Assembly: GCA_046482365.1 (NCBI GenBank)
Contig: JAWOFG010000182.1
Location: forward strand, 49,878 to 113,877
Direction: 5' to 3'
DNA: 64,000 bases
Source: Pelovirga sp.
GTDB lineage: Bacteria; Desulfobacterota; Desulfuromonadia; Desulfuromonadales; Geopsychrobacteraceae
Shown: one piece after another, positions 7,599 to 52,053 of the stretch
Layout of the letters: each line of letters begins with the position of its first letter
Numbering within the stretch: the stretch's first letter is position 1
Made by a program: the position numbers and the translations under genes
The notes under the pieces: generated by a model
Seen by the model: only the letters and a program-made list of their open reading frames with translations
The model's database searches: none
Told to the model about the DNA's origin: nothing

Positions 7599-7613
7599 AA
7601 GGAGATAAAAACG

Positions 7614-7700
7614 ATGTTACTGATGCTTTCCTGGATAGCCCTGATTGTTGTGTCGTACCTTGGTGCGGTGAGGTTGCTTAAGCGCTGGAACCTTCTTTAA
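7614..7700 (+). CDS. 28-aa single-TM peptide, candidate cytochrome bd accessory subunit (CydX/CydS-like by position)
   Basis: Too short for the ORF track. A strong RBS AAGGAGATAAAAACG precedes the ATG, 15 nt after the cydB stop. The peptide is MLLMLSWIALIVVSYLGAVRLLKRWNLL (hydrophobic helix plus basic tail) and is followed by a terminator hairpin. Confidence 0.45.
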   Translation: MLLMLSWIALIVVSYLGAVRLLKRWNLL

Positions 7701-7717
7701 ATTCACGATCAATAGAA

Positions 7718-7755
7718 GAGCTTCGCACCCGCCGTTTATAGTGGGTGCGAAGCTC
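7718..7755. terminator. Hairpin terminator between the convergent cyd operon and the hesB-like gene
   Basis: A 13-bp perfect stem GAGCTTCGCACCC / GGGTGCGAAGCTC with a 12-nt loop, sitting between two convergent gene ends. Confidence 0.7.
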
Positions 7756-7780
7756 GCGCTCTGCTTTGTCCTTTGTCGGA

Positions 7781-8068
7781 TCAGCAGCTTGCGCCGCTGG
7801 CGGCGCCGATGGAAAAGCCTTGACCGTATTCGTTATCGATGTAGTTGACCTGACGATCCTGAGTGAAGGGCAGGACCGACTCTTCGATCAACAAGTCAAT
7901 ATTGTTAATGGTGTGAATCTGCTGGTTTTCCTGTAGCTCATCCAGAGCCAACCCCAAACGGGGGCCACCTCAGCCAAAGCCTTCAAATACAATCCGCAGG
8001 TGTTTTTCCGGGTGCTCCTGCATCAGTTCCTTGATTTTGTCGCGGGCAACATCAGTTATTTTCAGCAA
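7781..8068 (-). CDS. HesB/IscA-like protein with in-frame UGA (candidate selenoprotein, Sec at codon 33)
   Basis: My own minus-strand translation from TTG 8068 (RBS AAAGGAGAG 5 nt upstream) gives LLKITDVARDKIKELMQEHPEKHLRIVFEGFG-U-GGPRLGLALDELQENQQIHTINNIDLLIEESVLPFTQDRQVNYIDNEYGQGFSIGAASGASC, stop at 7781-7783. The TGA at 7972-7970 sits where HesB/IscA proteins carry the first cluster-ligand Cys. The frame stays open and HesB-like on both sides of it. Confidence 0.7.
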
Positions 8069-8157
8069 ATCATCTCTCCTTTGGTGATCGTTGCAGGTTG
8101 TAAGGGTAAGTCTTCAGTTCGGGTAGCAAGGTGGTCACGCCACCTTCATTGTCAGCC

Positions 8158-8340
8158 TCAGGTGAAACCGGATCCACTACTTGGGCTACATGAACCGCCG
8201 GAAGTGCTGATCGCGGTGCGTGAGACCCTGCGTACTGCTGGTTTAGAACAGGCCGGGCAGCGGATGTCAGGCTGAGACCTTGTCTGAATTTTTTCTGTTA
8301 TTTTTCCACACTGCGGGCACTGGTACTCAAAAATCGGCAT
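8158..8340 (-). CDS. FmdB-family zinc-ribbon protein
   Basis: MPIFEYQCPQCGKITE...IRCPACSKP has the FmdB family signature with two CxxC pairs. A strong RBS AAGGAGGAG precedes the ATG. Confidence 0.85.
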   Translation of the reverse strand: MPIFEYQCPQCGKITEKIQTRSQPDIRCPACSKPAVRRVSRTAISTSGGSCSPSSGSGFT

Positions 8341-8418
8341 AGCTCCTCCTTGATGTCAATATACATATAAGTATATATATGGCTTTGTTGGTTTTCAAGC
8401 TTTTTTTTTGGATAGTTT

Positions 8419-8565
8419 GTATCTGTTCAGCACCGGGCCTTTGGATCCTATGTCAAGGGACGCTTTTCGTCATCCATGACCGCTTGTTGTCGCCGTCCAT
8501 AGCGACAAACACCGTTGCCACAGGATCCAAAGGCCCTGCGCGAAGGACAGCAGCTGAATAATTAC
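8419..8565. mobile_element. MITE-like structured repeat, copy A (147 nt), flanked by 8-bp direct repeat GATAGTTT
   Basis: About 85 percent identical to 62141-62284. The ends form imperfect terminal inverted repeats (GTATCTGTTCAGC ... GCTGAATAATTAC). GATAGTTT occurs at 8411-8418 and again at 8566-8573. No coding capacity is supported. Confidence 0.6.
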
Positions 8566-8701
8566 GATAGTTTTTTTGTTCGGGTCAAAGAAAGCAGGTA
8601 GCCCGATCGTTTTTTTCCGAAACCTCCAAATTCAACCATGGACGAAAAGCCATTTTGATATATACTAACGCCGTTTTATTATTTCTCACAGGGAGGTTGT
8701 T

Positions 8702-9478
8702 ATGACAGAAACACCGATTTTAAGCCGCGTAGAACATCACATCGGCTACATTACCCTCAATCGTCCGCAGGCCTTGAACACCTTCACCCCGGAATTTTCT
8801 GATCTGCTTGATCAGAGTTTATGGGCGATGGAGCGGGACGATGACGTTCGGGTCATTGTTGTTGAAGCAAAAGGAAAACATTTCAGTGTGGGAATTTCTC
8901 TTGAGGAGTTTCGCGGCAAGACGCCGCTAGAAGCTCGGCGATTTCTTCATCGGATTGATGCTTTTTACCATACCCTGAATCGTCTTAATAAGCCGACAAT
9001 AGCTGCCGTGCAGGGATATGCTGCGGCCAACGGAGCCGGGCTGTCTTTTGCCTGTGATATGACGGTTGCGACCGAAAGTGCCGTGTTCGGTACGACTGCT
9101 ATCAATGTCGGTCTAATCTGTCTGGGCCCGGCTGTGCCCCTGCTGCGTCTGGTCGGGCGCAAAAAGGCGATGGAAATGATTCTGACCGGTGAGACCCTGA
9201 GCGCGACTGAAGCACAACGGTTGGGGCTGGTCAATCGTGTAGTCGCTGACGATGCGCTGGCGGCTGAAACCCTGAAGCTGGCACAGACCCTGACCGCAAA
9301 AAGCCCGCTGGCCCTGCGGGCCGGTAAAGAAGGCTTGCGGCGCCTGCAGGATGTTCCTTATCACCAAGGCTTGGAAAATATGGATGACCTTTTTGCTGCG
9401 TTGACCACCTGCAGTGATGCTGAAGAGGGTATCAGTGCCTTTCTCGAAAAACGCTCTCCGCAATGGCAACAGTGCTAG
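8702..9478 (+). CDS. Enoyl-CoA hydratase/isomerase (crotonase) family protein
   Basis: A 258-aa protein with the crotonase-fold pattern (ITLNRPQALN, AAVQGYAAANGAGLSFACD, FLEKR). RBS GGGAGG. Confidence 0.9.
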   Translation: MTETPILSRVEHHIGYITLNRPQALNTFTPEFSDLLDQSLWAMERDDDVRVIVVEAKGKHFSVGISLEEFRGKTPLEARRFLHRIDAFYHTLNRLNKPTIAAVQGYAAANGAGLSFACDMTVATESAVFGTTAINVGLICLGPAVPLLRLVGRKKAMEMILTGETLSATEAQRLGLVNRVVADDALAAETLKLAQTLTAKSPLALRAGKEGLRRLQDVPYHQGLENMDDLFAALTTCSDAEEGISAFLEKRSPQWQQC

Positions 9479-9554: not shown

Positions 9555-10118
9555 ATGTCGAAAGGATTTATTGTTGTATTAGTAATTTTTTGTGCTCTGG
9601 TTTCATCCGCTCATGCCTTCGATGAGGAACTGGGCCAGATTGCCGGCATCAGCCGTACCTGCGCCGGTTGCCACGGCACTGATGGCGCTTCACCCGGGGC
9701 GATGATTCCTATCATTGGTGGCCAGATGGAGGGTTATCTGGCCGTGACGATGGAAGAGTTCGCTACAGATCAGCGCCCCGGCAGTGCCATGCTTAAATTT
9801 GCCAAAGGGTACTCGGCCGAGCAGCGGCGTGGCATCTCTGCCTATTTCGCTGCCAAGCCCTGGGTAAACAGCCCTTGGGCGGCACCTTCTTCTGCCCAGA
9901 ATCCGGATCTGGTTCGTGCCTGCACCGGTTGCCATGGCAGCAGTGGGGAGGGGCGCAATAATACCCCCCGTCTGGCCGGGCAGGCTCCTGAGTATCTTAA
10001 ACATGCTCTGCTTGAATATCAGCGTGGCGAGCGACCCGCTGCTACCATGCGTCTGATGCGGGCCTTTGATGAGGCAACTATCAAGCTGATGGCTGATCAC
10101 TTTTCCTCTTTAAAATAA
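9555..10118 (+). CDS. fccA: Diheme c-type cytochrome, flavocytochrome c sulfide dehydrogenase cytochrome subunit-like
   Basis: Has a signal peptide and two CxxCH haem motifs (CAGCHG, CTGCHG). It lies directly upstream of an FccB-like flavoprotein. Confidence 0.8.
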   Translation: MSKGFIVVLVIFCALVSSAHAFDEELGQIAGISRTCAGCHGTDGASPGAMIPIIGGQMEGYLAVTMEEFATDQRPGSAMLKFAKGYSAEQRRGISAYFAAKPWVNSPWAAPSSAQNPDLVRACTGCHGSSGEGRNNTPRLAGQAPEYLKHALLEYQRGERPAATMRLMRAFDEATIKLMADHFSSLK

Positions 10119-10128
10119 GGAGTAGAGC

Positions 10129-11397
10129 ATGAAACGTCGAGATTTCATCCGTTACACTGCGGTTGGCCTGGGGGCCTTATCCTTCGCTCCCACTATGTCC
10201 CTGGCTTCCTCCGGCGGTCGCAAACGGGTGGTCGTTGTTGGTGGGGGGTTCGGCGGGATGACGGCCGCCCGCTATCTCAAACGATTGAATCCAGCCCTTG
10301 AGGTGGTGTTGATTGAACGTAATGAAAAGTTCATTTCCTGTCCGATCAGCAACTGGGTCATGGTTGGCAAGTGGCCGATGTCAGACATCAGTTTTTCTTA
10401 TGAAAGTCTAGCCGGGCAGGGGATCAAGATTGTTCATGACGAAGTCACAGGTCTTGATGCGACTGCCGGCTACGTTCAGGGAAAGGCGGGAAAATATGTT
10501 TATGACCGGCTGGTTGTATCACCCGGGATCGATTTTCGTGACGAGTTGATTGAAGGCTACGATCAGCGCGCCAAGGATGCTTTTCCTCATGCCTGGCATG
10601 CCGGTCCGCAAACGCTGCAGCTGCAACAGGAACTTGCCGCCCTGCCTGCTGGTGGTACGGTGATGATGACGGTGCCGGCCAGTCCTTATCGCTGCCCCCC
10701 CGGCCCCTATGAGCGTGCCAGTCTGATCGCTGATTATCTGAAATTAAACAAGCCGGGGTCACGTTTGATCGTGGTTGACCCGCATCCACAAATTGCTTCG
10801 AAAGCTGCGTTGTTTCAGTCGGCCTGGGATGATTACTATCAGGATGTGATCGATTATCGTACCGAGCAGACAATCGTAGGAGTAGATATTGATAAGAAGA
10901 GTATCGTGACTCCGTCTGGTGACATTAGTGCTGATGTGATCAACCTGATTCCCAATCAGAAAGCCGGCGCCCTGGCTTTTGCTCTCGGGCTGGTCCCCGA
11001 GGATGAGTTGTGGGCACCGGTTAACCCCCGGACCCTCGAATCCAAGAGGATTCCAGGTGTTTATGTGATTGGTGATGCGACCGATGCCCGCACCAGTGGT
11101 CCGATGCCGAAATCAGGTTATGTCGCCAATTCCATGGGCAAGGTGGTTGCGGCTGCGATTGTTGCAGAGCTTGCCGGCAAGACAGCGCCGATTCCCTGGT
11201 TTGCCAACACCTGCTACAGCATGGTCAGCATGTCTGAAGCGATCTACATCACCGGGGTTTATCAGTATGATGCAGCGTTGGACACAACCATTACCATCAA
11301 TGAAGGCACCAAGGTTTCGACCGGACGTTCTGCTCTGTACGGTCGCTATGCCGAGGACTGGGGCCCGGCTATCTGGTCTGACATGATGGGGACATGA
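10129..11397 (+). CDS. fccB: Flavocytochrome c sulfide dehydrogenase flavoprotein subunit-like (FAD pyridine nucleotide-disulfide oxidoreductase)
   Basis: Carries a Tat signal (MKRRDFIRYTAVGLGALS), the FAD-binding motif VVVVGGGFGG and the CPPGPYERA redox-cysteine region typical of FCSD flavoproteins. Confidence 0.85.
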   Translation: MKRRDFIRYTAVGLGALSFAPTMSLASSGGRKRVVVVGGGFGGMTAARYLKRLNPALEVVLIERNEKFISCPISNWVMVGKWPMSDISFSYESLAGQGIKIVHDEVTGLDATAGYVQGKAGKYVYDRLVVSPGIDFRDELIEGYDQRAKDAFPHAWHAGPQTLQLQQELAALPAGGTVMMTVPASPYRCPPGPYERASLIADYLKLNKPGSRLIVVDPHPQIASKAALFQSAWDDYYQDVIDYRTEQTIVGVDIDKKSIVTPSGDISADVINLIPNQKAGALAFALGLVPEDELWAPVNPRTLESKRIPGVYVIGDATDARTSGPMPKSGYVANSMGKVVAAAIVAELAGKTAPIPWFANTCYSMVSMSEAIYITGVYQYDAALDTTITINEGTKVSTGRSALYGRYAEDWGPAIWSDMMGT

Positions 11398-11486
11398 GTC
11401 AACCTGTTTCGATTAGCCCGGCGTTTTTTGCTGAATTATATTTGACATATGATGGCTTTAAGTTATAGTTGATTAACTCTAAATAA

Positions 11487-11566
11487 GCTTCCGATAAGAG
11501 CAAACCCGGGGCGATCCGGGGACGCAAAGCCACGGGTCCCACGCGGACAGCCGGGTTGCCGAAGAG
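11487..11566 (+). promoter_or_regulatory. GEMM-I class cyclic-dinucleotide riboswitch aptamer (A at the Vc2 G20-equivalent position)
   Basis: The sequence AAGAGCAAACCCGGG-GCGA-UCCGGGGACGCAAAGCCACGGGUCC...GGACAGCCGGGUUGCCGAAG contains the GCAAAC element, a P2 helix capped by a GNRA tetraloop, the invariant GGGACGCAAAGCC core and the AGC-GGGUU-CC 3-prime element of c-di-GMP-I riboswitches. Confidence 0.8.
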
Positions 11567-11575
11567 TCAGTTGTC

Positions 11576-11610
11576 AGGCCCACTTCGGTATGAAGCTGGG
11601 CCTTTTTTTG
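11576..11610 (+). terminator. Intrinsic terminator (riboswitch expression platform)
   Basis: AGGCCCA-CTT / AAG-C-TGGGCCT hairpin followed by TTTTTTTG, located between the aptamer and the downstream GGDEF gene. Confidence 0.75.
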
Positions 11611-11673: not shown

Positions 11674-13383
11674 ATGGGCACAGCTCAGGATGACAGGTTC
11701 CAGCGCCGGATCAGACTGCAGAAGCTTCGTTGCCGTGCCCTGGAGTTCTGGTCAGGTGTTGGTTTACGTCCCCGCCTCATTGGTGCTTTTTTGCTGGTTT
11801 CCTTGATCCCTTTAGTGATCCTCTTTTTTGCCCAGTATCAAATTTCCAAACGTAACGTTCTTGACCAGATCGAATCAAACCTGATGCAAATTGCCGAGGG
11901 GCAACACCGGCGTATCGATATGGAGTTGCAGCGGCTTTTCGAACAACTGGAACTGGTAAGCAGTCGAACCCAGCTGCGTATCAGTTTAAAGGCTTATAAC
12001 CGGACTGGAGAGCATCACCACCTGGAGCTTTTGAACAGGATCATGGGCGACGCCCTTGCGTCAATGGAGCATTTTGTCGGTATCTGGATTCGTAATCCTG
12101 ATGATGATCTGGTGACGGGAGTTTTTAATGAGGATCCGGAGGCTCTCTGTTCTCTGACTCCTCCAGTTCAATCAGCAGAGTCGAAGCAACTGCAGCTGCA
12201 CTGGTTAGCCGAAGATAGCCCCTGTGTCTGGGTGAATGGACCCCTTTATCTTGAAGATCAAAACCTCGGCACTATTTATCTGCTGGTAACCATGACCGAC
12301 ATCGTTGCCGTGCTCGAAGATTTCCGTTGTGAACAATCCGGAATGGAAAATGTTTTGTTGCTGCCTGCTGATAATCAAGACATAAAAATTCTGGGGACCC
12401 TGTGTCCGGTCCAAGGGAAAGCTAATCAGGCTTTTTATCGTTTGTTAGAGTCGTCTGATTTCTATAGTACCTTGATTGCCGGTGGGGAAAATAGGTCACC
12501 CGTTTACCACCATGGCCACATCGCAGTAGTTCGACAACTCAGTTATGGCTTCGGTGATGTTCTGGTTCATGCCCATCCCGCTTCGTTGGATGGTGTTTTC
12601 TGGGGCCAGATGCGCTATCTGTTGGGGATGACCTTGTTCGCTCTGGTTTTGGTCATTGCGATGGCCCTTGCCTTGACGCGCATGATCGCCCGTCCACTAC
12701 GGGAACTGACCAGAGCGACTTCGATATTGCATGTTGGTCAGACTGACGTTCATATCAAAGAGCAGTTCTGGGGTGAATTTGCTGAACTGACACAGTCGTT
12801 CAACCGTGCCATGCGGGCGCTTTCGCGCCGCACTCGCGAGTTGAATCGGGAGGTTGAAGCGCGCCGGCGATCGCAGGAAAAACTGGTTGATCTGGCCAAT
12901 ACCGATACCCTGACCGGTTTGATTAATCGCCGGTATTTTATGGAAAAATTTCGTGAGGTGCTCAGCTTGCCATTCAGGGATCGCCAACCTGCAGCGCTTT
13001 TGTATATTGATCTGGACGATTTCAAACCCATCAATGACAGCATGGGACACGAAGCGGGCGACCTGGTGCTGCAGGTGGTGGCCGGAAGGATTCGTCACTT
13101 GTTGCGCGAAGGGGATCTCGCCGCGCGTATGGGTGGTGATGAGTTTGTGTTGTTGTTGATGGCGGATGGTTTGCATCCCCTCGATCCGGAGGTGATTGTG
13201 AAGCGGGTAGAAGAGCAACTAACCATGCCGATGACGATCAAGAATCAGGTCATTAGCGTCGGCTGCAGCATCGGTACTGTCAGGCTCTCACCCGGAGATG
13301 ATCCCCATGTGGTGCTCAACCGGGCAGATCAGGAAATGTACCGGGTCAAGCGCTCACACCGTATCAACAAGACTGAAAATTGA
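11674..13383 (+). CDS. Membrane sensor diguanylate cyclase (periplasmic sensor domain - HAMP - GGDEF)
   Basis: Two TM segments flank a sensor region of about 280 aa, followed by a HAMP linker and a GGDEF domain (FKPINDSMGHEAGD, RMGGDEFVLLL, RxxD I-site REGD). The start is ambiguous between GTG 11644 and ATG 11674; the latter follows GGGAG. Confidence 0.9.
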   Translation: MGTAQDDRFQRRIRLQKLRCRALEFWSGVGLRPRLIGAFLLVSLIPLVILFFAQYQISKRNVLDQIESNLMQIAEGQHRRIDMELQRLFEQLELVSSRTQLRISLKAYNRTGEHHHLELLNRIMGDALASMEHFVGIWIRNPDDDLVTGVFNEDPEALCSLTPPVQSAESKQLQLHWLAEDSPCVWVNGPLYLEDQNLGTIYLLVTMTDIVAVLEDFRCEQSGMENVLLLPADNQDIKILGTLCPVQGKANQAFYRLLESSDFYSTLIAGGENRSPVYHHGHIAVVRQLSYGFGDVLVHAHPASLDGVFWGQMRYLLGMTLFALVLVIAMALALTRMIARPLRELTRATSILHVGQTDVHIKEQFWGEFAELTQSFNRAMRALSRRTRELNREVEARRRSQEKLVDLANTDTLTGLINRRYFMEKFREVLSLPFRDRQPAALLYIDLDDFKPINDSMGHEAGDLVLQVVAGRIRHLLREGDLAARMGGDEFVLLLMADGLHPLDPEVIVKRVEEQLTMPMTIKNQVISVGCSIGTVRLSPGDDPHVVLNRADQEMYRVKRSHRINKTEN

Positions 13384-27730: not shown

Positions 27731-30151
27731 TTGCCGTTATTATTTTATTTGCTGGCGGCGGCCATTATTGGTTTGGCCGCCGCCAGTGTCGTTTCTGTCG
27801 GGGCGCCAAGCGGATGGATTGCTATCCTGCTTTGTCTGTGCCTGGCGTTTTATCTGCGCTGTATTTCCCGATTTTCCCGATTTCCACGACTCCCCCTGCT
27901 TCTGACCTGCCTTGCTGTTTCGCTCTTTTTCAACAGCCAGTATGCTGCCCGGTTACAATTTGCGGATGATGTTACCCGGATCGACCGGCTGGCCCGTCGA
28001 ACGACCGCCATTGGAATAATAACCGATATTCGTCAGTTGACCGATGGGCGTAGCCGGATTGATCTGCTGGTTGACGAGGTAAGGGATAAGCAGGTGGCGC
28101 TGGAACTCAAGCGCCCGTTGAGATTGCGCCTGAGTGTCGAAGAAAGCGGTGATCAGGTTGATCTGCTGCCCCGGGATCGTATTCGTTTTAGCGGTCGACT
28201 CCGCCAGCCGCGGTTATTCGGCACCCCGGGTGAATTTCAATGGCCGCGTTATGTGATCAGCCAGAATATCGATATGACCAGTTGGGTTAAAAGTATTGAC
28301 GAGGTCGCACTTGTGGCTGCGGGGGAAGGAGGCCTGCAACGGTTGATCGTCCAGTGGCGAGAACGGATTGCGGGTTTTATCGTAGCCCATGTGTCAGAAA
28401 AGAACTCTCCTTTGGTACGGGCCCTGGTACTGGGGGAGGGGCGGCAATTGCCGGAGACCGTACGTAAAACCCTGGCCGGCGCGGGCGTCAGTCATCTGTT
28501 TGCCATTTCCGGACTGCATCTTGGAATATTAGCGGTGTTCGGTTATCGTCTGTTGCTGTTGTTCTACCGGCGCTCAGCCTGGCTGCTTCACTGGCAGCCG
28601 CCTCAACGGGTACTCCCCCTGGTGTTGTTACCGTTGCTCTTTGTTTATCTGCTGTTAACCGGTGATGCGGTGTCAACCCGCCGCGCTTTTGCCCTGGCTG
28701 GTATCGGGGCGCTGTTGTTGTGGTGGCGTTATCCGGTCAATCCGCTACATCTGTTGGCTGCTGTAGCGTTGACTTTTTTACTCTATAACCCGCTGCTGTT
28801 GTGGTCAGCCGGCTGGCAGTTGTCGTTTTGCGGCGCTGCCGGCATTCTGTTGTGGCGACCCTGGTGGCAACATCAGCGTGTCATGGAGCTGCCATGGACC
28901 GGTTTGCGCTATCTGATCCAGATTTTTCTGGTCAGTTTCGCCGCAACTTCGGCAACCCTGCCTTTAGTCCTGTTTAATTTTCACTTGTTCGCTCCGGCAG
29001 CCCTGGTCGCGAATCTGGTCTGCGTGCCGATCGTTACCCTGATTGCTCTACCGATCGGGTTTGTCGGTCTGTTCTTGTTTCCCTTGTGGCCACAAGCGGC
29101 CGCGCTTTTATTTCCCTGCAGTGGCTTTTTTCTGGGACAGCTCTATCAGTTCTCTTTATGGCTGACCGACTTTTCGCTGCTGGCGGGCAAGTATCTCTAC
29201 TGGTCACGTACTCAGTATCTTGCGCTGGCTTTACTGTTGGTCCCGTTGCTGTTGATGCCCCTGCTATCCCGGCGTCCGTGGCTTGCCATAACAGCAGGTT
29301 GCCTGTTGTCGGCTTTGTTGTTGTGGCAGTTGCCCCTGGTGTCCAGGACACCATTAACCCTGACCATGTTCAGCGTCGGTCAGGGGGAGTCGTTGCTTCT
29401 ACAAAACAACAGTGGCCAGAATATCCTGATTGATGGAGGCGGACTCTATGGTGACCGTTTTGATGTCGGGCAGCGCCTGCTGGCTCCGGCCTTCGGTGAG
29501 TTAGGTGTTAAGCATTTTGACCGGATTATCCTGACCCATGATCATGCTGATCACTGGAAAGGATTGATCTATGTGCTTGAACGCTTTCCGGTCGCTGAGC
29601 TGGTCGTTGGTGAGCCCCTGGTGAACTACAACCCGGCACTTGTAGAAGTGACCCGACGCAACAATATCCCCGTGCGGGTGGTGGAACAGGGGTGGAGCCC
29701 CTTTGCCGACTGGCGAGAGGGAACACTGGAGGTATACAATGACAGTGCTGTGGCCGCTAATGCCAATGATGCCTCTCTGGTGCTTGCCTTGCGCACCGTC
29801 GATGCAACAGGACGTGCTCAGGGGCTGCTGTTGGCCGGTGATCTCGAGTCACAGGGGGTGCAGGGCCTGATTGCTGCGGGACTTTCGACTCCCGCAACCT
29901 TGCTCAAACTTCCCCACCACGGCAGCGGTAAATCGCAGAGCGAGCGCTTGGTGTCTTTGTTGGGTTCTGAGGTGGGTTTGGTGTCAGTCGGCTATCAGAA
30001 TATCTATCGGTTGCCATCCAAAACTCTATTGGAACAGCTCGAAGAACAGGACATGAGGATTTATCGAACCGATCGGGACGGAACCGTTCGAGTGCAGCTG
30101 GATGATGCCGGGTGGCGCCCGCAAAAATGGCAAAATGGCCTTTTCCGTTGA
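27731..30151 (+). CDS. comEC: DNA internalization-related competence protein ComEC/Rec2
   Basis: An 806-aa protein with a polytopic competence domain plus a C-terminal metallo-beta-lactamase domain (LTHDHADHWKG, LKLPHHGS). Confidence 0.9.
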   Translation: MPLLFYLLAAAIIGLAAASVVSVGAPSGWIAILLCLCLAFYLRCISRFSRFPRLPLLLTCLAVSLFFNSQYAARLQFADDVTRIDRLARRTTAIGIITDIRQLTDGRSRIDLLVDEVRDKQVALELKRPLRLRLSVEESGDQVDLLPRDRIRFSGRLRQPRLFGTPGEFQWPRYVISQNIDMTSWVKSIDEVALVAAGEGGLQRLIVQWRERIAGFIVAHVSEKNSPLVRALVLGEGRQLPETVRKTLAGAGVSHLFAISGLHLGILAVFGYRLLLLFYRRSAWLLHWQPPQRVLPLVLLPLLFVYLLLTGDAVSTRRAFALAGIGALLLWWRYPVNPLHLLAAVALTFLLYNPLLLWSAGWQLSFCGAAGILLWRPWWQHQRVMELPWTGLRYLIQIFLVSFAATSATLPLVLFNFHLFAPAALVANLVCVPIVTLIALPIGFVGLFLFPLWPQAAALLFPCSGFFLGQLYQFSLWLTDFSLLAGKYLYWSRTQYLALALLLVPLLLMPLLSRRPWLAITAGCLLSALLLWQLPLVSRTPLTLTMFSVGQGESLLLQNNSGQNILIDGGGLYGDRFDVGQRLLAPAFGELGVKHFDRIILTHDHADHWKGLIYVLERFPVAELVVGEPLVNYNPALVEVTRRNNIPVRVVEQGWSPFADWREGTLEVYNDSAVAANANDASLVLALRTVDATGRAQGLLLAGDLESQGVQGLIAAGLSTPATLLKLPHHGSGKSQSERLVSLLGSEVGLVSVGYQNIYRLPSKTLLEQLEEQDMRIYRTDRDGTVRVQLDDAGWRPQKWQNGLFR

Positions 30152-30200: not shown

Positions 30201-31577
30201 ATGATGGTGGAACAAGCTAAAATACTGGTTGTTGACGATGAGCTTTTTTTTCGTCATCTCTACCGTGATCTCCTCGAAGATGCCGGTTATGCTGTGGTGA
30301 TCTGTGCTAATGGTGATGAAGCTGTCAGGTTACTGGAAGCAGAGCCCTTTGACCTGGTCTTGAGTGATGTGGTCATGCCCGGTCGCAGTGGTATCGACGT
30401 GCTCCGTTTCGCCAAGGGGTTGCCGTCACCTCCTGAAGTGGTGATGGTGACTGGTTACGCCAGTCTTGACTCTGCAATCGAATCTCTTAAAAACGGTGCC
30501 CGCGACTATCTGGTAAAACCTTTTAATCCGGAAGAGCTCAAACATCTGATCGCAACCTGTCTGGAGCAGCGGCGGCTACTGGCTGAAAATGCCCATCTTA
30601 AACGCCAGATCAACCTGTTTCAGACTGGCCAGACGCTTTCTTCCCTGATCGACCTGGAGTGCCTGATTCCTCAATCCCTTGAAGCCTTGATGCGTAAACT
30701 AGGTTCCCAATCGGGGTTCTCCTTTACCCTGGCAGACGATCAGGCAACCTATCTGACGGGTCTGAAAAAGATCCACGCAGGACATGCCGAGCAGTTAATC
30801 GAACTGCTGCTGCCGGAATTTTTTCAGGCGGCCGGTGTTGTTCAGCCATCAGGAGAATGTCTGGAGGGGTTGCGTAGCTTGAACAAACGACCTGAGCAGA
30901 TCTGGATGCTGCCATTGCGTGACGGAGATTTGTTGAAGGGTGGCATTCTGATCAGTGATGCAGTTTGTAACGATACCGATTTTTCTCCGGCTGACCTGCG
31001 CTACCTGTGCGATCAGATTGCCCTGGGGTTTGCCAACGCCTCGCGTTATCGTAATGCCCAGCAACTGATGTATTCCGATGACCTGACCGGTCTTTATAAT
31101 CATCGTTATCTTCAGATCGCTCTTAATCAGGAGATGATGCGCTCGCAGCGTTATGGTCTGAAATTTTCTGTTTTGTTTATGGATCTGGATCGTTTCAAGG
31201 AGATCAATGATCAGCACGGGCATCTAGCCGGCAGTGCGGCTCTGCAGGAAGTGGGGCGGTTGATGCGTGGTTGTGTTCGTGATGTCGACACCCTGTTTCG
31301 CTTTGGGGGCGATGAATTTGCTGCCCTGTTGGTTGAGACCGATCGACGCGCAGCACGAGTTGTTGCCGAGCGGATTCGCGGGCTGATTGAAAAGCATGTG
31401 TTTCTGGAAAAAGACAATCAGCCATCGCAGGTTACCGTCTCTATCGGCATTGCGACCTTCCCCGATGATGCCACCAACCAGGAACGCCTTCTCGGCCTCG
31501 CTGATCAGGCCATGTACGCCGGCAAGGAATCGCGTAACAGCATCTGCAGTGCCGTCGATCTGGTAGATACTCGTTAA
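30201..31577 (+). CDS. Response regulator receiver - linker/GAF-like - GGDEF cyclase; candidate Hypr GGDEF (GacA-like)
   Basis: The REC domain has an intact acceptor Asp (LVLSDVVMPGRSG). The GGDEF domain has FGGDEF and an RxxD I-site. The base-recognition motif reads FKEINDQHGHLAGS, with Ser345 (AGT 31233-31235) where canonical cyclases have Asp. Confidence 0.85.
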   Translation: MMVEQAKILVVDDELFFRHLYRDLLEDAGYAVVICANGDEAVRLLEAEPFDLVLSDVVMPGRSGIDVLRFAKGLPSPPEVVMVTGYASLDSAIESLKNGARDYLVKPFNPEELKHLIATCLEQRRLLAENAHLKRQINLFQTGQTLSSLIDLECLIPQSLEALMRKLGSQSGFSFTLADDQATYLTGLKKIHAGHAEQLIELLLPEFFQAAGVVQPSGECLEGLRSLNKRPEQIWMLPLRDGDLLKGGILISDAVCNDTDFSPADLRYLCDQIALGFANASRYRNAQQLMYSDDLTGLYNHRYLQIALNQEMMRSQRYGLKFSVLFMDLDRFKEINDQHGHLAGSAALQEVGRLMRGCVRDVDTLFRFGGDEFAALLVETDRRAARVVAERIRGLIEKHVFLEKDNQPSQVTVSIGIATFPDDATNQERLLGLADQAMYAGKESRNSICSAVDLVDTR

Positions 31578-31780: not shown

Positions 31781-33022
31781 TTGAGTATCTCAGGAATCAA
31801 GGGAATGAACGATGTGCTGCCGGATGTCATTGGTGTCTGGCAGTTTGTTGAACGCAGTGCGCGCGAGGTTTTTGGCACCTATGGCTTTACTGAAATCAGA
31901 ACGCCGGTGCTCGAAAAAACCGAACTCTTCTGTCGTTCTATCGGTGAAACGACCGACATCGTTGAAAAAGAGATGTATACTTTTGCTGACAAGAGTGGCA
32001 ACTCCATGACCTTGCGCCCGGAAGGGACGGCTCCGGTGATGCGCTCCATTATCCAGAATCGTCTGGCTGCCCAGGATCCGGTTGCCAAGCTCTATTATAT
32101 CGGTTCCATGTTTCGCTACGAACGTCCACAGAAAGGACGTTACCGGCAGTTTCATCAAATCGGGGTCGAAGCGATCGGGGTCGAAGATCCCAAGATTGAC
32201 GCCCAGATACTGATGATGCTTCATCATTTTTTTAACCGTATCGGTATCAGTGCCGTCTCCCTCGAAATTAATTCCCTTGGCTGTCCGGCCTGCCGTCCCG
32301 GTTACCGCGAGCACTTGATCCAGTATCTTGAACAACGACTGGAGCCCCTTTGCAGTGAATGCCAACGGCGTTATCAGACCAACCCTTTACGCGTGCTGGA
32401 TTGCAAGGTGGAAGCCTGCCGGACGGCTACGGCTGATGCGCCGGCGATGGTCGAGCATCTGTGTGGCGAGTGTGACCAGCATTTCAGTCAGGTCCGGCGG
32501 TATCTTGATCTGCTCAAGGTGCCTTACACTGTCAATGAACGGATGGTGCGTGGTCTTGATTATTATGTCCGTACGACCTTTGAGCTGGTGACCGATCAGT
32601 TGGGTTCACAAAACGCTGTAGCAGCTGGTGGTCGCTATGATGGGCTGATTGAAAGTCTGGGCGGCCCGGCACTGCCGGGGATCGGTTTTGCCATCGGGCT
32701 GGAACGTCTGGTGCTTATGCTCGACCAGGATGCTGCCAGTTCTGCCGCGCCGGACCTGTTTATCGCTGCCCTCGGGGATGCCGCAGCCGAGCAGGCCTTT
32801 GTTCTGATGTCGCAACTGCAGGTCCAGGGCGTGCGCGCGGAAATGGATTTCCAAAACAAAAGCTTGAAAGCGCAGATGCGGCGGGCGGACAAGCTGGGTG
32901 CAGTTCATACGCTGATCATCGGCGACGATGAGTTGCGCAGCGGGCAGGCACAGCTCAAAAAGATGGCAGACGGCACCCAGACAAGTGTCCGTCTTGATGC
33001 CCTGCTGGAAATACTGACGTAA
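31781..33022 (+). CDS. hisS: Histidine--tRNA ligase
   Basis: TTG start. GMNDVLP, LRPEGTAPVMR, YIGSMFRYERPQKGRYRQFHQ and GGRYDGL are class II HisRS motifs. Confidence 0.95.
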   Translation: MSISGIKGMNDVLPDVIGVWQFVERSAREVFGTYGFTEIRTPVLEKTELFCRSIGETTDIVEKEMYTFADKSGNSMTLRPEGTAPVMRSIIQNRLAAQDPVAKLYYIGSMFRYERPQKGRYRQFHQIGVEAIGVEDPKIDAQILMMLHHFFNRIGISAVSLEINSLGCPACRPGYREHLIQYLEQRLEPLCSECQRRYQTNPLRVLDCKVEACRTATADAPAMVEHLCGECDQHFSQVRRYLDLLKVPYTVNERMVRGLDYYVRTTFELVTDQLGSQNAVAAGGRYDGLIESLGGPALPGIGFAIGLERLVLMLDQDAASSAAPDLFIAALGDAAAEQAFVLMSQLQVQGVRAEMDFQNKSLKAQMRRADKLGAVHTLIIGDDELRSGQAQLKKMADGTQTSVRLDALLEILT

Positions 33023-49860: not shown

Positions 49861-52053
49861 CTAACTGTCGGTCTGAGGGACACCGTTCTTCAGTAAATTA
49901 ATGAATTGGTGATCTGGAATCGGGCGACTGAATAAATAGCCCTGGAAAAGATTACATCCATTCTGTTTGAGAAAGTCGAGTTCAGGGCGGGTCTCTACGC
50001 CTTCGGCAATGACTTTAAGATAAAGATGTTCCGCCATGGCGATAATGGTGGCAACAATGGCGGCATCATTGGCATCGGTTTCAATGTCACGGACGAAGGA
50101 CTGATCAATTTTGAGAATGTCCAGAGGCATTTTTTTCAGATAGGTCAAGGAAGAATAGCCGGTCCCAAAATCGTCAATGGAAAGTTGTAATCCCAGTTTT
50201 TTTAGCCCCTGCATTTTTTCAATCGTGTCGATAATATTGTCAATCACCAGGCCTTCCGTCAGTTCAAAGCAGACCATGGTCGGATCGACCCCGGTTTCAT
50301 CCAGGATTGACTGAACCTGGGCGACAAACTCAGGTTGGCGGAACTGGCGGGGGCTGACGTTAATGGCAAGATGACTGAGCCCCAGCCCTTGATCGTTCCA
50401 CTTCTTTAAATGCCGGCAGGCTGTTCTCAACACCCATTCACCAATCGATAGAATCAAGCCACTGGCTTCGGCAATGGGGATAAAGGTGCCGGGAGAAATA
50501 AATCCCTTGGTGGGGTGGATCCAGCGAATAAGCGCTTCGGCACCAAGAATATTACCATGATAATCGACTTGCGGTTGAAAATAGAGAGACAATTCATCGC
50601 GTTCGATGGCATGGCGCAGTTCTTTTTCCAGGGCGAGACGATAGTCAGCCGCCGCCTGCATGCTTGGCAGAAAGAAGCGAATGGTATCGCGACCATCATC
50701 CTTGGCCCGGTACATGGCGGTATCAGCATAGCGCAGAATATCACTGCCGGTTTCGTAGCCGCCGTCAACTGACGGGAACATGGCAACCCCTATACTCGGG
50801 GTGATGTGCAAAATATTGTCATGAATCATGTAGGGTTCGGTCAGGCGTTCCTTGATGCTTTCCGCTTTGTGTTGGGCCGCCGCCGCTGCAGTTCCTGCTT
50901 CGGTGCCCAGGTCAGCTAAGAGGACGACGAATTCATCACCTCCCAGCCGAGAAATTGTATCCTCGCTGCGCATGTCAGTCGCCAGTCGTTCAGCTACCTG
51001 CTTGAGGAGATCATCGCCGATCGGATGGCCGAGGGAGTCATTGATGTTTTTAAAACGATCCAGATCTAAAAAGAGCATGGCACCATAGTGGCCATAGCGT
51101 CTGGCACGAGAGAGGTTCTGCTCAAGACGATTGATCAACAGGCGACGATTCGGCAGTTCCGTCAAGGCATCATAATAAGCCAGGTATTCAATCCGTGCCT
51201 CGGCCTCTTTGCGTTCGGTGATGTCGCGCAACGTAGCACAAATTTTATCAGCATTTTCGCGCTCGCCACTCTGATAACTGGCGTTGAGGGAGCAGGGAAT
51301 GTCGTGCTGGTCTTTGTCGCGCAGGTGGATCTCGAAATCACGAATCTGGCTAGTTTGATTGAGCAGATCGAATAACTCGTCGCGCTCCTGCGCCACAGGG
51401 AAAAGTCCCTCGACTTTAGTACCGATTAATTCATCACGTTTGAACGCTGAAATTGCAGAGATGGACGGGCTGACTTCCAGGATCACGCCGTTGCCGGCGA
51501 ATTCGAAGTAGACATCCTGCAAATTTTCAAAAATGGAGCGGTATGTTTCTTCACTCTTGCGTAGCTTGAAATGCGATTCATTGAGGTCGTTGATAGCTTT
51601 CTGCAGAGCAGCGGTGCGGCGTGTGACTTCTTCTTCAAGATGTTCCTGGTAAGCGCGATTTTCAATGATCAGGCGCGCACGCTCAAGTTCCTGATTGATG
51701 GCATGCAACAAAACGGACATGTCCTGAATCGGTTTAAGCAGATAGTTCCATGCCCCGCGGTGGATTGCCTCAATGGCATCACCGATAATCCCGGTTCCGG
51801 AAACGACAACGATTGGGGTGTCTGGAGATTCAGCCCTGATCGTCTGCAGTACCTCAAGTCCATCCATCTCCGGCATTCGCAGATCGCACAGTACCAGATC
51901 CGGTTTATCGCGACGAAAAACCTCCAGCCCCTCGCGCCCGTTTTTTGCTTCAACCACGTCAAAATCATGATCTTCAAGAAACAGCTGGAAGCTGTTGCGG
52001 ATCTGGTCTTCATCGTCAATGGTGAGAATTAGCGGATTTTTTTGACGCCCCAT
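49861..52053 (-). CDS. Response regulator receiver - PAS - GGDEF - EAL protein
   Basis: REC domain (LVLCDLRMPEMDG), a PAS region, a GGDEF domain (NDSLGHPIGD, LGGDEF, RxxD) and an EAL domain (EALIRW, DDFGTGYSS, KIDQSF). Confidence 0.9.
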   Translation of the reverse strand: MGRQKNPLILTIDDEDQIRNSFQLFLEDHDFDVVEAKNGREGLEVFRRDKPDLVLCDLRMPEMDGLEVLQTIRAESPDTPIVVVSGTGIIGDAIEAIHRGAWNYLLKPIQDMSVLLHAINQELERARLIIENRAYQEHLEEEVTRRTAALQKAINDLNESHFKLRKSEETYRSIFENLQDVYFEFAGNGVILEVSPSISAISAFKRDELIGTKVEGLFPVAQERDELFDLLNQTSQIRDFEIHLRDKDQHDIPCSLNASYQSGERENADKICATLRDITERKEAEARIEYLAYYDALTELPNRRLLINRLEQNLSRARRYGHYGAMLFLDLDRFKNINDSLGHPIGDDLLKQVAERLATDMRSEDTISRLGGDEFVVLLADLGTEAGTAAAAAQHKAESIKERLTEPYMIHDNILHITPSIGVAMFPSVDGGYETGSDILRYADTAMYRAKDDGRDTIRFFLPSMQAAADYRLALEKELRHAIERDELSLYFQPQVDYHGNILGAEALIRWIHPTKGFISPGTFIPIAEASGLILSIGEWVLRTACRHLKKWNDQGLGLSHLAINVSPRQFRQPEFVAQVQSILDETGVDPTMVCFELTEGLVIDNIIDTIEKMQGLKKLGLQLSIDDFGTGYSSLTYLKKMPLDILKIDQSFVRDIETDANDAAIVATIIAMAEHLYLKVIAEGVETRPELDFLKQNGCNLFQGYLFSRPIPDHQFINLLKNGVPQTDS

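Follow-up and report, generated by a model that had tools for sequence, protein, structure and literature searches.

The closest described systems are the GEMM-I riboswitches, in which the adenine A47 (Vc2 numbering) intercalates between the two bases of the ligand, C92 is the Watson-Crick partner of a ligand guanine, and OFF-type expression platforms are common. Known targets of GEMM-Ib members are cytochromes, pilus assembly genes, lipoprotein transpeptidases, and hypothetical genes, and also polysaccharide genes. In Geobacter, 3',3'-cGAMP and c-di-GMP favor opposite surface lifestyles, on metal-oxide particles and in electrode biofilms, respectively, and c-di-GMP inhibits GacA, the cGAMP synthase, through an inhibitory site. 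To our knowledge, this inhibition is the only known link between the two messengers in Geobacter.

The Geobacteraceae are the lineage in which riboswitches with A at position 20 (A20) proved to be cGAMP sensors (PMC6456294), and the characterized Geobacter cGAMP riboswitches are all ON switches (PMC6456294, PMC9262584). As a group, A20 RNAs span from ~1200-fold cGAMP-selective to c-di-GMP-preferring (PMC6456294, PMC6140456). The Vc2 G20A variant binds c-di-GMP at 53 nM and cGAMP at 120 nM, and Cbe 1-2, a naturally occurring A20 riboswitch, has a preference for c-di-GMP (30 nM compared to 463 nM for cGAMP; PMC6140456). Selectivity for cGAMP is limited to a subset of A20 riboswitches; one of these, Gs1761, also binds c-di-GMP by way of a protonated adenine, and its selectivity depends on P1 (PMC6140456).

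We analyzed a stretch of 64,000 nucleotides (here called the window) from Pelovirga, a genus that the NCBI taxonomy places in the Geobacteraceae. When the whole window was searched with cmscan, a single Rfam match reached its gathering threshold, a GEMM-I-clan aptamer (clan CL00126) at 11490-11564 on the + strand, scoring 64.4 bits (gathering score, 59) with an E value of 6.6e-13. A second CL00126 member also scored above its own threshold and was masked by clan competition. The transcription unit around the aptamer has the following features.

11442-11469, + strand: sigma-70-type promoter (TTGACA, 16-nt spacer, TATAGT), agreeing with the consensus at 11 of 12 positions
11488-11564, + strand: GEMM-I aptamer (Rfam clan match; pairs 91 to 100% kept, helix by helix, in seven orthologues)
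11488-11493 with 11560-11564, + strand: P1, from the covariance-model alignment
11500-11525, + strand: P2 with a GCGA (GNRA) cap, from the same alignment
11528-11557, + strand: P3, from the same alignment
11576-11609, + strand: intrinsic terminator, a hairpin at 11576-11603 with a U7 tract at 11603-11609 (-16 kcal/mol)
11674-13383, + strand: regulated gene (ATG at 11674) for a two-transmembrane sensor with HAMP and GGDEF domains (Pfam GGDEF, 2.2e-40; HAMP, 1.7e-5)

Searching species-representative genomes for the cyclase identified five orthologous loci, one in Pelovirga terrestris (86% identity) and four in Geobacteraceae/Desulfuromonadales metagenome-assembled genomes (MAGs; 59 to 78%). A metagenome contig, L086 (56%), supplied the seventh leader, with that of the window counted as the first. 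In each of these six other genomes or contigs, the cyclase orthologue (56 to 86% identity) comes directly after the leader, and promoter, aptamer, linker, and terminator lie directly upstream of it in all seven cases. Promoter sites of the quality found in the window occur on average 0.2 times in shuffled sequences; across six orthologous leaders, the -35 hexamer does not vary and the -10 hexamer hardly does, and the transcript is predicted to start near 11476, ~12 nt ahead of P1.

P1 is closed by pairing of 11492-11493 with 11560-11561, and a bulge at C11491 would allow the helix to continue with pairing of 11488-11490 to 11562-11564. The P2 loop is a GNRA tetraloop (GCGA, GUAA, or GAGA) in seven of the seven orthologues. 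The terminator has an outer stem (11576-11582 with 11597-11603) and an inner stem (CUUC at 11583-11586 with GAAG at 11592-11595), and a bulged C in its hairpin caused a simple terminator scan to overlook it. Its helix is 100% paired in the seven orthologues; three pairs of the outer stem show compensatory changes, the inner stem does not vary, and L086 has a weaker U tract. Thus, the leader contains a GC-rich hairpin with an adjoining U tract and pairing that is kept in relatives, as expected of an intrinsic terminator.

We located the residues of the ligand pocket with the covariance-model alignment and with a MAFFT alignment to Vc2 and Gs1761, the numbering of which agrees with the ligand-contact residues in PMC7288161.

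11499, + strand: A at the specificity position, Vc2 G20 or Gs1761 A14 (covariance-model position 10; MAFFT alignment with both RNAs)
11526, + strand: A47 equivalent, the first base past P2 (model position 37)
11559, + strand: C92 equivalent (model position 75; aligned with C75 of Gs1761)

A11499 directly precedes the first base pair of P2, a G-C pair, and C11559 is the second of two unpaired bases ahead of the P1 3' strand, so that the pocket consists of A20, A47, and C92. The covariance score, the GNRA loop on P2, and the A47 and C92 equivalents place this RNA in the GEMM-I fold. It departs at A11499 from the G20 pocket of c-di-GMP-I proper (the RF01051 type) and has the A20 with retained C92 that defines GEMM-Ib. 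The bases around A20, namely G19 and the G21:C46 pair, are as in Vc2, whereas Gs1761 has U13 and C15:G40. P3 and J3/1 differ very little from those of the selective Gs1761 (GGGUC...GACAGCCGGGYUGCCGAA).

These results bear out most of what an earlier note had read from this DNA: an unmistakable GEMM-I aptamer with a GNRA-capped P2, a span of 11487-11610 that correctly takes in both aptamer and terminator, an A at the Vc2 G20 equivalent (the covariance-model and MAFFT alignments both returned A11499), and a retained C92 equivalent. Aptamer, A20, and a covarying terminator are thus confirmed, and the RNA at 11488-11609 can be described, on these features, as a putative transcriptional riboswitch of the GEMM-I fold with A at position 20.

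The top-scoring Rfam family for the aptamer was not RF01051 but RF03167 (c-di-GMP-I-GGC), which raises the possibility that this RNA is a true member of that class and binds its ligand. RF03167 is the best-scoring family not only for the window but also for the orthologues, which reach 59 to 71.7 bits. However, its consensus has G at model positions 10 and 37 and C at position 75, and we infer that the "GGC" of its name refers to these pocket positions. Where the window reads A, A, and C, both of the positions that set RF03167 apart from ordinary GEMM-I (10 and 37) differ from that consensus. Given this mismatch, the high score reflects the common scaffold and the short P3 rather than the pocket. 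We therefore rejected filing the RNA under RF03167 and regard true membership in that class as extremely improbable.

The product of the regulated gene contains GHEAGD, an RxxD inhibitory site, and GGDEF (REGD-x5-GGDEF) in its translation and is, by these motifs, a canonical, product-inhibitable diguanylate cyclase, in agreement with the description of a canonical GGDEF membrane cyclase in the earlier note. No Pfam family scored above threshold for its periplasmic domain (residues ~65 to 325, ~260 amino acids), where only a subthreshold match to dCache_1 was found (E 0.007, 16 bits). Upstream of the riboswitch, genes for a cytochrome c and a flavocytochrome c sulfide dehydrogenase (FCSD) occupy 9555-11397. 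In the window and in L003, this pair lies between an enoyl-CoA hydratase gene and the riboswitch, and the short contig L005 begins with FCSD sequence that includes at least the final part of the gene. In P. terrestris (L001, 3647-3718) and in L002 (3517-3594), only approximately the last 25 FCSD codons are left just upstream of the promoter, in what looks like a deletion scar. The window also contains a third gene for a cyclic-dinucleotide enzyme, a Rec-PAS-GGDEF-EAL protein with a canonical GHPIGD motif (49861-52053, - strand); the whole-window Rfam scan detected no riboswitch near it.

The anatomy of the leader bears on the direction of control, which the earlier note had left open. The terminator begins at 11576, 12 nt past the end of the aptamer at 11564. 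Because they share no nucleotides, the two structures can coexist, and a ligand-bound aptamer leaves the terminator free to form. The leader has the [PA][TH] layout, as described for the OFF switch Cd1 (PMC9262584). When the leader was scanned for other partners of the terminator arms, the two P1 strands were the only strong ones; a single further 6-mer match, GGGUCC at 11534 in P3, pairs with the terminator 3' arm. The scan, folding, and conservation together single out one segment as a candidate switching element.

11558-11564, + strand: switching strand GCCGAAG, either the P1 3' strand or one half of an antiterminator (complementarity, folding, invariance)

This strand pairs with CUUCGGU (11583-11589) in the terminator 5' inner arm over 7 bp, at -7.9 kcal/mol, and the P1 5' strand, AGCUUC (11486-11491), is complementary to GAAGCU (11592-11597) in the terminator 3' inner arm. 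P1 itself contributes only -0.2 kcal/mol. For folding, we compared defined states with P2 and P3 held fixed; unconstrained folding of the leader was dropped, since J1/2 then mispairs with the U tract and the aptamer is not recovered. For ligand-free transcripts ending at 11590 to 11602, the minimum-energy fold combines the antiterminator with pairing of the P1 5' strand to the 3' arm of the terminator, and for the transcript to 11602 this strand-swapped fold has -44.0 kcal/mol, compared to -41.2 kcal/mol for aptamer plus terminator. In constrained folding with P1 locked, the terminator forms. The thermodynamic minimum of the full-length leader favors the terminator in both states, so switching must be kinetic.

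Sequence conservation follows the same division of the leader. The segments with two possible partners, which are the inner terminator stem and both P1 strands, never vary among the seven orthologues, while the outer stem, with one partner, covaries. The antiterminator pairing of 11558-11564 with 11583-11589 is likewise invariant in all seven and hence shows no covariation. In the window it contains a 6-bp Watson-Crick run, which 6% of shuffled sequences attain and which is only suggestive when taken alone. In an unrelated A20 leader from metagenomes (contigs L085 and L088), the corresponding run, which joins the 3' strand of P1 to the 5' arm of the terminator, is 8 bp long and is attained by 0.06% of shuffles, and in another (L019) a 6-bp run is attained by 4%.

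From these results, we consider it likely that ligand promotes termination, i.e., that the leader is an OFF switch. The alternative is an ON switch of the Geobacter GEMM-Ib kind, in which ligand would prevent termination and induce the cyclase. It has precedent in the lower expression of all GEMM-Ib-controlled genes in a gacA deletion mutant of Geobacter sulfurreducens (PMC6456294) and in the pilM riboswitch, which is an ON switch (PMC9262584). Against it, the terminator at 11576-11609 is placed beyond the aptamer without overlap and is free to form when ligand is bound, and the two P1 strands, its arms' only strong competitors, are both sequestered by ligand binding. We therefore think that an ON switch is improbable at this locus.

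In the predicted OFF mechanism, transcription would start at the conserved sigma-70 promoter, and binding of ligand would lock P1 (11488-11493 with 11560-11564). CUUCGG and GAAG would then pair with each other, the terminator at 11576-11609 would form, and transcription would stop ahead of the HAMP-GGDEF gene. When ligand is absent, P1 would be nearly worthless energetically, GCCGAAG would pair with CUUCGGU in the terminator 5' arm, and AGCUUC of the P1 5' strand could pair with GAAGCU in the 3' arm. The terminator would thereby be preempted and the cyclase transcribed. The net effect would be that a high level of cyclic dinucleotide lowers the synthesis of an enzyme that produces c-di-GMP.

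The window also contains a gene for a candidate source of cGAMP, ~19 kb from the riboswitch-cyclase unit.

30201-31577, + strand: GacA-type Hypr GGDEF protein with Rec and GGDEF domains (Pfam; GHLAGS, GGDEF, and an RxxD site)

In its product, Ser replaces the Asp that specifies guanine (GHLAGS). The Hypr signature combines Ser at this position with GGDEF in place of GGEEF (PMC6456294), and the protein has both. Its best match in the PDB is 6d9m, the GGDEF domain of Geobacter metallireducens GacA (2e-45), followed by a match at 9e-37, and among the homologues listed as matches, 120 of 120 have Ser at the specificity position, 119 of them together with GGDEF. The gene is flanked by comEC (27731-30151) and hisS (31781-33022), and the order comEC-gacA-hisS was found again in four other contigs. 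Hypr GGDEF genes are also present in the genomes of the riboswitch orthologues; on one MAG contig (JAGYPB010000001.1), for example, ~19 kb separates GacA from the riboswitch-cyclase unit, the same spacing as in the window. Thus, this organism very probably makes 3',3'-cGAMP, with the 30201-31577 product as the likely synthase, and the predicted enzyme would provide the capacity for cGAMP synthesis that a GEMM-Ib host should have.

Position 20 is A in six of the seven orthologous leaders and G in that of P. terrestris, whose aptamer is otherwise nearly identical to that of the window and whose assembly has 45x coverage. We rejected a link between this G20 and loss of the cGAMP synthase: P. terrestris keeps a Ser-type GacA, encoded on the same 95,420-nt contig as the G20 leader, so loss of cGAMP does not explain the base. 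The G20 leader also indicates that A20 is not obligatory for the promoter-leader-cyclase unit. We also surveyed aptamers that share the P2 and J2/3 core of the window's aptamer, using for metagenomes a search pattern that begins just past position 20 and is thus blind to the base there. Among 129 such aptamers, from metagenomes and those already collected, 109 have G, 15 have A, and 5 have C. By this count, A20 is a minority state that the Pelovirga-like clade has retained. A20 also occurs sporadically in unrelated high-GC leaders (L050, L056, L068, and L100) whose sibling leaders have G20, so exchange of G and A at position 20 is not rare in evolution.

The metagenome survey yielded several further observations. 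High-GC leaders with an identical P2 core have C at position 20 in L075, L078, L082, L095, and L120, and several high-GC leaders, with C or A at this position, precede small proteins beginning MS(F/Y)W(D/N)G..W. One independent A20 aptamer, present in both L088 (~8800-8950, - strand) and L085, has an OFF-type platform that is even more distinct than that of the Pelovirga leader (8 bp); it is followed by an EAL-like open reading frame (ORF; 30.8 bits, just below the Pfam cutoff) and then an HDOD ORF. In L088, a frameshift may have split a single gene into these ORFs, at 8227-8787 and 7609-8088. The A20 aptamer of L019 (- strand, core at reverse-strand position 1069) precedes a small secreted protein with a match to the Rap1a immunity-protein family. 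Two same-core GEMM-I aptamers lie 0.75 to 6 kb apart in L043, L050, and L119, in a nontandem arrangement and apparently before different genes.

The earlier note had taken A20 to imply a preference for cGAMP, and part of that claim stands, in that both A20 and a Hypr GGDEF gene are present. The implied preference is weakened, on the other hand, by A20 RNAs that prefer c-di-GMP, by the Vc2-like neighbors of A20 in this pocket, and by a P. terrestris leader that has G20 alongside GacA. Its further proposal, that cGAMP is a transcriptional input to c-di-GMP synthesis, agrees with a cyclase as the target. A at position 20 would let the riboswitch accept 3',3'-cGAMP, probably made by the GacA-type enzyme 19 kb away, and we lean toward cGAMP as a physiological ligand. 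Strong discrimination against c-di-GMP seems less likely than that, and the RNA may also respond to c-di-GMP. From sequence alone, repression of the cyclase by cGAMP cannot be separated from feedback by c-di-GMP; in published data, A20 permits binding of cGAMP without shutting out c-di-GMP.

An OFF switch of identical architecture whose cellular ligand is c-di-GMP, or both dinucleotides equally, would make the leader a negative-feedback element on the cyclase in which A20 is tolerated. The affinities of Vc2 G20A (53 nM) and Cbe 1-2 (30 nM) for c-di-GMP, which A20 RNAs bind through a protonated adenine (PMC6140456), are consistent with this reading, as are the Vc2-like G19 and G21:C46 pair, the G20 of the P. 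terrestris orthologue in a genome that kept GacA, and the sporadic A20 among G20 siblings in the four high-GC leaders. GEMM RNAs have, in addition, long been known upstream of c-di-GMP turnover genes (PMC7266159). Several results argue the other way: six of the seven orthologues keep A over cyclases at 56 to 86% protein identity, against a background of 85% G; A20 riboswitches of the Geobacteraceae have been shown to be cGAMP sensors (PMC6456294); P3 and J3/1 almost match those of Gs1761; and the cyclase already carries an RxxD site for product inhibition. On this evidence, c-di-GMP or dual feedback is possible but rather unlikely. An A20 OFF switch that accepts cGAMP, ahead of a diguanylate cyclase, is the explanation that we favor overall, with modest confidence.

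The leader is thus predicted most likely to terminate transcription ahead of the diguanylate cyclase when ligand binds, either as cross-repression by cGAMP or as dual or c-di-GMP feedback. We tentatively suggest one extension of the cross-repression reading. If the A20 OFF switch is selective for cGAMP, this dinucleotide would repress transcription of the cyclase, and the repression would form a mutual-inhibition toggle with the inhibition of GacA by c-di-GMP; the GacA homologue at 30201-31577 retains the inhibitory RxxD site. Such a circuit would be a toggle between two second messengers with an RNA as one arm, and the RNA would be the first OFF-type cGAMP riboswitch. If cGAMP turns the cyclase off, a reciprocal link between the two messengers would be supplied, and the cGAMP subclass would not be confined to ON switches on electron-transfer genes. 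In that case, the G20 of P. terrestris would have naturally rewired the unit through one base, turning cross-repression into self-feedback by c-di-GMP. The seven orthologous leaders, six with A20 and one with G20 in otherwise nearly identical aptamers, are a ready-made specificity experiment. If both ligands bind, the leader would be an ordinary feedback element and chiefly a caution against calling specificity from position 20 alone.

Every element of this locus is already known from other systems, and only the combination is uncharacterized, though the 2015 surveys of the class may list GGDEF targets of A20 riboswitches. The Geobacter GEMM-Ib riboswitches (Gs1761 upstream of pgcA and the pilM riboswitch of G. 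metallireducens) have in common with the Pelovirga RNA the fold, A20, A47, and C92, a Geobacteraceae host with a GacA-type Hypr GGDEF protein, and control by an intrinsic terminator. Within the pocket, Gs1761 has U 5' of A20 and C:G as the first P2 pair, compared to G and G:C in the window. In the pilM leader, aptamer and terminator are mutually exclusive, which makes it an ON switch (PMC9262584), whereas in the window they are separate and the switch is predicted to be OFF. The targets also differ, as the earlier note had pointed out for cytochrome and pilus genes: GEMM-Ib RNAs of Geobacter control cytochromes, pili, and polysaccharide genes, and the window's target is a HAMP-GGDEF diguanylate cyclase. 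This leader would thus depart from a typical, though not defining, trait of GEMM-Ib, an ON switch before genes for extracellular electron transfer.

[quoted passage not shown] Unlike these two RNAs, the Pelovirga RNA has a P3 of the Geobacter type and a host that is predicted to make cGAMP through a Hypr GGDEF enzyme. RF03167 has the scaffold and the short P3 in common with the Pelovirga RNA, with G, G, C rather than A, A, C in the pocket. Cd1 of Clostridioides difficile, a c-di-GMP-I OFF switch, differs in having G20, in sensing c-di-GMP, in controlling flagellar genes, and in a much longer expression platform. In the logic of its leader, however, Cd1 is similar: aptamer and terminator can coexist, the antiterminator is built from the 3' strand of P1 and the 5' arm of the terminator, and ligand promotes termination, as we predict for the Pelovirga leader.
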